This document shows, piece by piece, positions 32,594 through 33,131 of a stretch of DNA of 64,000 nt. The notes under the pieces were generated by a model that did not search any database, had not been told where the DNA came from, and saw only the letters and a list, made by a program, of their open reading frames with translations. Numbering within the stretch: the stretch's first letter is position 1; every line of letters starts with the position of its first letter. Origin of the DNA: Escherichia coli (lineage in GTDB: Bacteria; Pseudomonadota; Gammaproteobacteria; Enterobacterales; Enterobacteriaceae). A program made the position numbers and the translations under genes. The stretch lies in assembly GCF_030013205.1 (NCBI RefSeq), contig NZ_CP122648.1; one strand, given 5' to 3'.

Positions 32594-32973
32594 AATGAAT
32601 CCTTTTTCGATTTATGAGAATAAATACTCATTTAAGAGTGAAAACATTTTGCCTGCAAATGATTATCAGGAAATATAACATTATCGAAGTATTCAAATTA
32701 ACAACTATTAAATAATATTAAACATTTTTAACGTAAACATTAAGAATATTCATCTTGTTATCTGTCTGTATTTTAACCAGAATTAAATCAGTATTAGATG
32801 CCGTATGAATATCTCGAAATGTTGCTGTGTATCACATACAAATCATCACCGCAGGACCATAGTATTTACATAAGGTTTGTCCCCCGGAGGTAGTCATCGC
32901 AGCAATCGAGTAAATTAGCTTCACCACGGTATATTGTTTCCGTAGAATACCCATAATTATAAGAGAGGTTGTT

Positions 32974-33033
32974 ATGATTGAACGTGAACTGGGGAACTGG
33001 AAAGACTTTATCGAAGTTATGCTTCGTAAGTAA
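32974..33033 (+). CDS. ypfM: small protein YpfM (19 aa)
   Basis: ATG ATT GAA CGT GAA CTG GGG AAC TGG AAA GAC TTT ATC GAA GTT ATG CTT CGT AAG TAA = MIERELGNWKDFIEVMLRK; strong RBS aagagagg 6 nt upstream. Confidence 0.7.
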   Translation: MIERELGNWKDFIEVMLRK

Positions 33034-33098
33034 TTCCTGAGACAAAGTACAAACAGCAAGAACCTGCTGAGCAGGTTCTTAATCGGAAAGTTGAAAAG

Positions 33099-33127
33099 GG
33101 CGACACATTGGCATGTCGCCTTTTTTA
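33099..33127. terminator. bidirectional rho-independent terminator (acrD and ypfM)
   Basis: Hairpin ggcgaca-cattggca-tgtcgcc flanked by A-run upstream and T-run downstream. Confidence 0.65.
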
Positions 33128-33131
33128 TTGC

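Follow-up and report, generated by a model that had tools for sequence, protein, structure and literature searches.

The 19-codon open reading frame between yffB and acrD is ypfM, a free-standing, monocistronic small-protein gene, the same as K-12 gene b4606 and as the Salmonella RNA STnc250. It is not new, being already catalogued as annotated gene b4606 and under family model NF033843. Its most likely mode of action is that of a partner-binding micro-protein consisting of an amphipathic helix; its mRNA, short and Hfq-associated, would be subject to repression by ArcZ and to higher transcription at low oxygen. We consider this account of gene, mRNA and peptide to be probably the best explanation overall; its gene-level part is secure, the mechanism of the peptide being the part that we infer. 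ypfM is among the shortest validated bacterial protein genes and poses a small open question rather than a discovery. Our analysis supplies the anatomy of the ypfM transcript, virtually excludes a leader-peptide reading and names two candidate partners by synteny; beyond what was known of ypfM, it adds, modestly, a conserved promoter-like element ~100 nt upstream and a corrected yffB promoter.

Identity and conservation of ypfM

The window, a 64,000-nt stretch of Escherichia coli contig NZ_CP122648.1, carries dapE and yffB on the minus strand, then ypfM on the plus strand and acrD again on the minus strand (Table 1). A 19-codon ORF alone would be put down to chance; annotation, conservation and published mass spectrometry together make this one real. 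The first-pass annotation had placed such an ORF, with a strong ribosome-binding site, between yffB and acrD and had offered a micro-protein as one reading. Its coordinates are exact, and the micro-protein reading is borne out. The 538-nt region was found in 5425 of 5426 complete E. coli genomes, where the RefSeq label is ‘protein YpfM’. The peptide, padded with one upstream residue to form a 20-aa query, matched the NCBIfam equivalog NF033843 (small_YpfM) over profile positions 1–19, at 59.2 bits against a cutoff of 33, and the gene sits in the slot typical of the family, divergent from yffB-dapE and convergent with acrD. Its K-12 counterpart, with an identical peptide in the same position between yffB and acrD, is b4606, for which the RefSeq product is still ‘uncharacterized protein YpfM’, as the earlier remark on its function implied. 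The ORF was reportedly first noted by Wassarman et al. in 2001, and is said to have been validated with an SPA tag by Hemm et al. in 2008. Top-down mass spectrometry has recovered intact YpfM with 100% coverage and a formylated initiator Met, and PRM detected it in one growth condition only, low-Mn minimal medium (PMC12529367, 2025).

Table 1 Features of the ypfM region (positions in the window)
Feature	Position	Strand	Details
dapE	31106-32233	-	
yffB	32237-32593	-	
yffB-ypfM intergenic region	32594-32973	.	380 nt, 31% GC
AT-rich core	32594-32800	.	207 nt, 23.2% GC; holds yffB promoter and 5' UTR
yffB extended -10	32672-32680	-	TGTTATATT; predicted TSS ~32665, 5' UTR ~72 nt
Composite element, proposed distal promoter P2	32823-32863	+	TGC-N6-TCACA (32823-32836), 21 nt, CATAGT (32858-32863); predicted TSS ~32870
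Proximal promoter P1	32920-32948	+	TTCACC, 17 nt, TAGAAT; predicted TSS ~32955, 5' UTR ~19 nt
ypfM Shine-Dalgarno	32961-32968	+	AAGAGAGG; 5 nt 5' of ATG; read from sequence
mRNA fragment in ArcZ hybrids	32973-33000	+	TATGATTGAACGTGAACTGGGGAACTGG; Hfq-CLASH (PMC7213987)
ypfM CDS	32974-33033	+	ATG 32974, TAA 33031-33033; 19 codons and stop; product MIERELGNWKDFIEVMLRK
ypfM 3' UTR hairpin 1	33058-33080	+	perfect 11-nt arms 33058-33068 (AAGAACCTGCT) and 33070-33080 (AGCAGGTTCTT)
Shared rho-independent terminator ypfM/acrD	33092-33131	.	GGCGAC...GTCGCC stem 33092-33127; A-run and T-run flanks
acrD	33132-36245	-	

Taxonomic breadth comes solely from 80 loci anchored on YffB, with one genome per species. 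A YpfM-like ORF diverges from yffB in 67 of these 80 Enterobacterales loci, which take in Citrobacter, Salmonella, Klebsiella, Enterobacter, Kosakonia, Cedecea, Buttiauxella, Yersinia, Dickeya, Pantoea/Erwinia and Hafnia, and the Shine-Dalgarno core GAGG is unchanged in all 24 aligned genera. Conservation of the peptide across Enterobacteriaceae, named at the outset as a telling sign, was found with coding selection, and it extends beyond that family too. Among 49 distinct nucleotide versions of ypfM, summed entropy was 5.2 bits at the first codon position, 4.7 at the second and 13.5 at the third, pooled pN/pS was 0.20 and JC-corrected dN/dS was 0.12. Low dN/dS, together with entropy concentrated at the third position, clearly places selection on the amino-acid sequence of YpfM, which lends indirect support to translation of the ORF. 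Within E. coli, 4784 of 5425 records have the same 79 nt of leader and ORF; the most polymorphic part of the gene is the 3' UTR, with the window's allele being common, at a level of at least 99%, to only 307 records. Some ORFs of 22–31 aa also lie in the AT-rich region (for example, 32805-32873) and were set aside on inspection, their substitution pattern not being codon-like.

The gene travels with both of its neighbours. acrD is convergent and adjacent in 64 of the 67 ypfM-positive loci, the three loci lacking it being two from Dickeya and one from Yersinia artesiana; among 11 ypfM-negative loci with upstream DNA, acrD adjoins yffB in one only (Erwinia endophytica). Simple inheritance as a block may account for this association, and the synteny gives candidate partners for YpfM, not evidence of interaction.

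The residue-level map of YpfM puts eight invariant residues (M1, E5, W9, K10, F12, I13, M16 and L17) on one helical face. On the helical wheel, the invariant hydrophobic residues occupy 0–160 degrees, and every variable position (4, 8, 11 and 15) is on the polar face, at 280–340 degrees. The hydrophobic moment is 0.55, with a sharp peak at 100 degrees per residue, a value reached by only 2.6% of shuffles; mean hydrophobicity is -0.12, without a hydrophobic span and with no net charge. Neither a PDB profile search nor a Pfam scan returned a chain or family resembling YpfM. These patterns suggest that YpfM forms one amphipathic helix and that a face of it is packed against something else. The conserved hydrophobic and charged face of the helix would dock on a larger protein partner, or would self-associate, and YpfM would then have a modulating role like that of other enterobacterial micro-proteins.

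Promoters in the yffB-ypfM intergenic region

About 370 nt of extremely AT-rich DNA had been described ahead of ypfM. The description holds for the 207-nt core, the lowest-GC stretch of that length within the window (mean 53.6%), and fails for the ypfM-proximal 173 nt, at 40.5% GC. This AT-rich island belongs to the divergent yffB-dapE operon, as its promoter and 5' leader, is bound by H-NS and IHF, and is not part of ypfM. ChIP-chip peaks of both proteins overlap the core (Myers 2013, Tables S3 and S4; assumed 1,976-nt offset), genomic SELEX flags H-NS in the ypfM/yffB spacer (PMC3946193), and an oxygen-dependent change in yffB expression has been described only in a delta-hns/delta-stpA strain. 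Escherichia, Citrobacter and Salmonella, among others, share the extended -10 of yffB. The 5' UTR that it predicts for Salmonella is 98 nt long, and the yffB::gfp fusion made in that organism starts at -97 (Fröhlich et al. 2016, PMC5137417). Since the conserved extended -10 fits this Salmonella start, we dropped the published yffB promoter TTCATA-16-TTTAAT (PMC3946193).

The proximal promoter P1 was the only sigma-70-like match in our promoter scan, and its hexamers have also been given by Ishihama's group (PMC3946193). Across Enterobacteriaceae its CTTCAC and TAgAAT are held at a fixed distance; the -10 is kept in the Yersinia, Dickeya and Pantoea/Erwinia loci and is absent from Hafnia locus L081. 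Published sigma-70 ChIP-seq has peaks at 2588887 and 2588903 of U00096.2 (Myers 2013). Converted to current K-12 coordinates with the assumed 1,976-nt offset, which agrees with the narQ peak, they fall within ~20 nt of the ypfM start, on P1. The sigma-70 signal at ypfM was 322 under aerobic and 817 under anaerobic conditions, a 2.5-fold difference (Myers 2013). RNA predicted from P1 would be about 178–180 nt long in E. coli and 146 nt in Salmonella. P1, a sigma-70 promoter, gives a short ypfM mRNA of predicted length ~180 nt with a strong ribosome-binding site, ending at the terminator common with acrD.

The best-conserved non-coding block of the intergenic region lies further upstream, at the composite element P2. 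The composite (TCACA to nATAnT at 20- or 21-nt spacing) was found in 50 of 68 loci, compared with 1 of 3400 shuffled upstream regions. We propose it as a second, activator-type promoter of ypfM, a reading drawn from the sequence and resting on fixed spacing despite a varying interior, on conserved hexamer bases (A2, T3, A4 and T6) that are those important in a -10, and on the lack of a -35 element. Its dyad is centred at 32828.5, or -41.5 from the predicted start site, a geometry that would suit a class II CRP- or FNR-dependent promoter. The dyad matches the CRP consensus at ~12 of 22 positions, with only the TCACA half being conserved and the left half reading xTTGC; it gives a good match neither to TGTGA-N6-TCACA nor to TTGAT-N4-ATCAA, as a class II CRP or FNR site would, and a term search of the FNR ChIP and predicted-site tables of Myers 2013 returned no row naming ypfM, yffB or acrD. 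P2 would add a longer ypfM transcript.

The same block could instead be a remote operator, at which a transcription factor acts on P1 or on the yffB promoter, with no ypfM promoter there. Its position between two divergent promoters in H-NS- and IHF-bound DNA would suit an operator, as would the missing -35 element and the location of the E. coli sigma-70 peak on P1, ~100 nt away. An operator accounts less readily for the fixed spacing and the -10-type bases, or for transcript length: Salmonella RNA would measure 227 nt from P2, close to the published STnc250 band of ~220 nt, as against the 146 nt predicted from P1. We regard an operator as a possible but doubtful alternative to a second promoter.

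Comparison with other transcription factors was made by eye against consensus sequences. A BaeR box at the -35 of P1 was rejected, as CTTCAC resembles the consensus (PMC3915751) only partly; published BaeR ChIP-exo peaks are confined to spy and mdtA. Sites for CpxR, Fur, Zur, ArgR, PurR, MntR, OxyR, sigma-54, sigma-32 and sigma-E were misfits or not conserved.

The ypfM mRNA, its 3' UTR and ArcZ

Two hairpins had been noted 3' of the ORF, and both stand: one with perfect arms, followed by a rho-independent terminator that ypfM shares with acrD, the acrD stop codon adjoining it on the opposite strand at 33132. The folding energy of the 101-nt 3' UTR is -35.1 kcal/mol (z = -4.7 relative to shuffles). 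The stem of hairpin 1 is kept across Escherichia clades while its apical bases change; 2 bases separate the 3' UTR allele of the window from that of K-12, in which hairpin 1 has a C.A mismatch. Genera outside Escherichia carry different hairpins in its place. In 65 of 68 loci a terminator lies 32–92 nt past the stop, and its sequence, AAAAAGGCGAC...GTCGCCTTTTTT, is conserved in Enterobacteriaceae. The segment between stop codon and terminator is unalignable between genera and tends to be structured relative to shuffles across them (mean z = -1.64, the loci not being phylogenetically independent).

A short ORF followed by two stem-loops also prompted the suggestion of a leader peptide, by which translation of the 19 codons would control read-through of the terminator, for example into antisense RNA to acrD, the gene directly behind it. 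Leader peptides such as MgtL and TnaC were detected by the same mass-spectrometry workflow as YpfM (PMC12529367). This reading did not survive. acrD lies directly behind the terminator in the convergent orientation, as in nearly all ypfM-positive loci, and there is thus no co-directional gene downstream on which attenuation could act. From the stop codon it is 24 nt to hairpin 1 and ~60 nt to the terminator stem, too far for a terminating ribosome to reach; the MFE and centroid folds both contain two independent hairpins and no alternative antiterminator pairing; runs of a regulatory codon are missing from ypfM; and YpfM is conserved from end to end, following a helix-face pattern, which sets it apart from typical leader peptides. 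Nor is there a conserved leader structure: a consensus fold of -105 to +20, which takes in the stretch from the predicted P2 start to the ORF, over 24 genera gave -1.2 kcal/mol and no compensatory pairs, and positions 32200-32970 gave no credible Rfam match at E up to 10. The absence of conserved structure and of upstream Rfam matches leaves a riboswitch unsupported, and small-RNA or riboswitch-like structure, for which 32600-32970 had been singled out, did not appear there. We therefore consider attenuation highly improbable, and retain the free-standing small-protein gene.

The Salmonella counterpart STnc250 contains the ypfM ORF and has been described as a small mRNA, stable and dependent on growth phase (Sittka et al. 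2008, PMC2515195). It was enriched 4-fold by Hfq co-immunoprecipitation (24 versus 6 reads), with the cDNAs clustering in its last 94 nt, which run from codon 14 as far as the terminator (PMC2515195). In the window, Rfam model RF01409 (STnc250) matched 33013-33132 with 34.9 bits (E = 8.9e-5) and did not reach its gathering threshold of 42; compared with this Salmonella-based model, 37 nt are inserted in the 3' UTR of E. coli. Positional homology with STnc250 is clear despite the sub-threshold score. Other Rfam matches (miRNA, snoRNA, CRISPR, lncRNA and so on) were far below their gathering thresholds and were taken as noise.

In E. coli, 13 arcZ-ypfM hybrids were recovered by Hfq-CLASH in the exponential and transition phases, and the pair also appears in RIL-seq (Iosub et al. 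2020, PMC7213987, Supplementary file 3). A hybrid with the SdsR region covers about the same mRNA segment (K-12 2590832–2590867) and is weaker than that with ArcZ, and one hybrid with ChiX falls in plus-strand RNA at 32790-32818 (PMC7213987). ArcZ UUCCCUGG is predicted to pair with CUGGGGAA (32990-32997) over codons 6–8, which is within the range in which small RNAs block initiation. The ArcZ-ypfM duplex, at -16.3 kcal/mol, is no better than with shuffled mRNA, and the SdsR duplex energy is likewise no better; the case for ArcZ control is consequently that of the published hybrid counts. ArcZ, made aerobically, would pair over the first ypfM codons and block translation initiation, and as a consequence YpfM would accumulate mainly at low oxygen.

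With two small RNAs and Hfq on one short transcript, ypfM might be a dual-function RNA, its mRNA also being a regulator, either by sequestering ArcZ and SdsR, as a sponge or decoy, or as the source of a 3'-UTR-derived small RNA acting on other mRNAs. It is catalogued in Rfam as an Hfq-binding RNA, the Salmonella co-immunoprecipitation cDNAs lie at its 3' end, and its structured 3' UTR is built as Hfq modules typically are, with a hairpin, an A/U-rich stretch, a terminator and a U-tail. Gly7, within the stretch paired with ArcZ, is encoded by the rare codon GGG in 39 of the 49 distinct sequences, and this retention is compatible with RNA-level constraint. Yet the sequence of the 3' UTR between stop codon and terminator changes from genus to genus, leaving no conserved single-stranded seed outside the ORF, and the 3' UTR is also where E. 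coli varies most; selection is on the amino-acid sequence, the Hfq enrichment is modest, and the hybrids follow the pattern of an ordinary small-RNA target. A second function of the RNA is, in our view, quite improbable, and the micro-protein reading is preferred.

A proposed oxygen-dependent model and known systems

The first-pass suggestion of tight regulation is plausible. A testable oxygen-dependent model of ypfM joins three published data sets that bear on it, namely the ArcZ-ypfM Hfq hybrids, the higher anaerobic sigma-70 occupancy and the binding of H-NS and IHF. In a bolder version of this model, which we think unlikely as a whole, YpfM would be a low-oxygen micro-protein, owing to anaerobic sigma-70 occupancy, a possibly activator-dependent P2 and an aerobic block by ArcZ, and its helix would modulate either AcrD or the operon of the YffB thiol reductase and the DapE metallo-enzyme; alternatively, an abundant short mRNA would titrate ArcZ and SdsR.

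Three groups of known systems resemble ypfM. With TrpL, MgtL and TnaC, it shares stem-loops preceded by a very short ORF that has a strong ribosome-binding site; it is unlike them in lacking a downstream cistron, an alternative pairing and a run of regulatory codons, and in having a peptide conserved over its whole length. SgrS/SgrT, AzuCR/AzuC and Spot 42/SpfP are, as is ypfM, short Hfq-associated RNAs with a tiny ORF. SgrS, AzuCR and Spot 42 have conserved pairing seeds and demonstrated trans targets, whereas the 3' UTR of ypfM differs between genera and ypfM, unlike them, figures in interactome data as the target partner.

The third likeness is to small proteins of at most 50 aa with their own short transcripts, including AcrZ (which binds the AcrB pump), MgtS (YneM/STnc570), MntS and SgrT; like YpfM, they are condition-regulated and often linked to small RNAs or Hfq. 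AcrZ and MgtS are single-pass membrane proteins, and YpfM, charged and amphipathic without a hydrophobic span, is unlike them in this respect. The adjacency of ypfM to acrD, an RND pump gene, recalls AcrZ and AcrB, although block inheritance is possibly its cause. In Salmonella, yneM and ypfM were found together as small mRNAs in the Hfq co-immunoprecipitation (PMC2515195).

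A possible promoter inside yffB, the small gene ypfN and a second low-GC stretch

A strong anaerobic sigma-70 ChIP-seq peak is reported at U00096.2 position 2589585 (Myers 2013 Table S1), and an assumed offset of 1,976 nt to current K-12 coordinates places it within the 3' end of yffB, a short way upstream of where dapE begins (32233). The peak suggests a promoter for dapE internal to yffB. No sigma-70 peak of its own was seen for the yffB promoter among the Myers 2013 ChIP-seq peaks. Just downstream of dapE lies ypfN, a further small gene in the annotation; its product, 66 aa long according to RefSeq, is hydrophobic at the N-terminus and ends in a highly charged tail. 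Outside the AT-rich island upstream of yffB, a scan of the 64-kb window found a single other stretch with a 207-nt GC content of <=0.28.

Coordinates of the features discussed in this part
Feature	Position	Strand
ypfN	30878-31102	-
Sigma-70 peak, by assumed offset	~32279	
Fur-box-like GATAATCATT	32648-32657	-
24-nt palindrome	32736-32759	
GAATATTC	32743-32750	
ChiX-hybrid segment	32790-32818	+
Other low-GC stretch	~47801-48017	

The ypfM slot in other genomes

Erwinia endophytica (L072, one of 80 yffB-anchored Enterobacterales loci) has acrD without ypfM, the slot being filled by an unrelated 64-aa ORF (2162-2356 of that locus, - strand) with a strong GGAGG ribosome-binding site. Within E. coli, queries with the ORF, the intergenic region or the 3' UTR gave only partial matches in NZ_CP062815.1, NZ_CP088131.1, NZ_CP073939.1 and NZ_CP182174.1, in some of these records split over two separate places, which suggests, from sequence matches, that insertions or rearrangements disrupt ypfM or its flanks in these few genomes.

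Small-RNA contacts

SdsR represses yffB in Salmonella (PMC5137417), and E. coli CLASH data include a hybrid between ypfM and the SdsR region; the divergent yffB (32237-32593) and ypfM genes may therefore share SdsR as a small-RNA regulator. Separately, one Hfq-CLASH hybrid (Iosub et al. 2020, PMC7213987) joins ChiX to plus-strand RNA from the AT-rich island, upstream of both promoters proposed for ypfM (P1 and P2). This single-read hybrid could be noise or could come from a rare upstream transcript.

Possible ArgR and Fur sites upstream of yffB

In the alignment, loci from several Enterobacter, Leclercia and Cedecea (L022, L024, L007, L046 and L049) carry TGAAA-N4-ATTCA palindromes that lie ~35-50 nt further upstream than the -10 element of yffB. 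Judged by motif, these palindromes upstream of yffB-dapE resemble an ArgR ARG box and are candidates for one. The E. coli counterpart is only GAATATTC, within a 24-nt palindrome.

Where the yffB leader begins, GATAATCATT fits the core of the Fur box, and its region agrees with the full Fur box at ~13 of 19 positions by our own count. This Fur-box-like sequence lacks conservation beyond Escherichia in the yffB upstream alignment. In a Salmonella fur mutant, yffB is up 2.6-fold, and the site predicted there differs from the E. coli sequence (PMC3212961).
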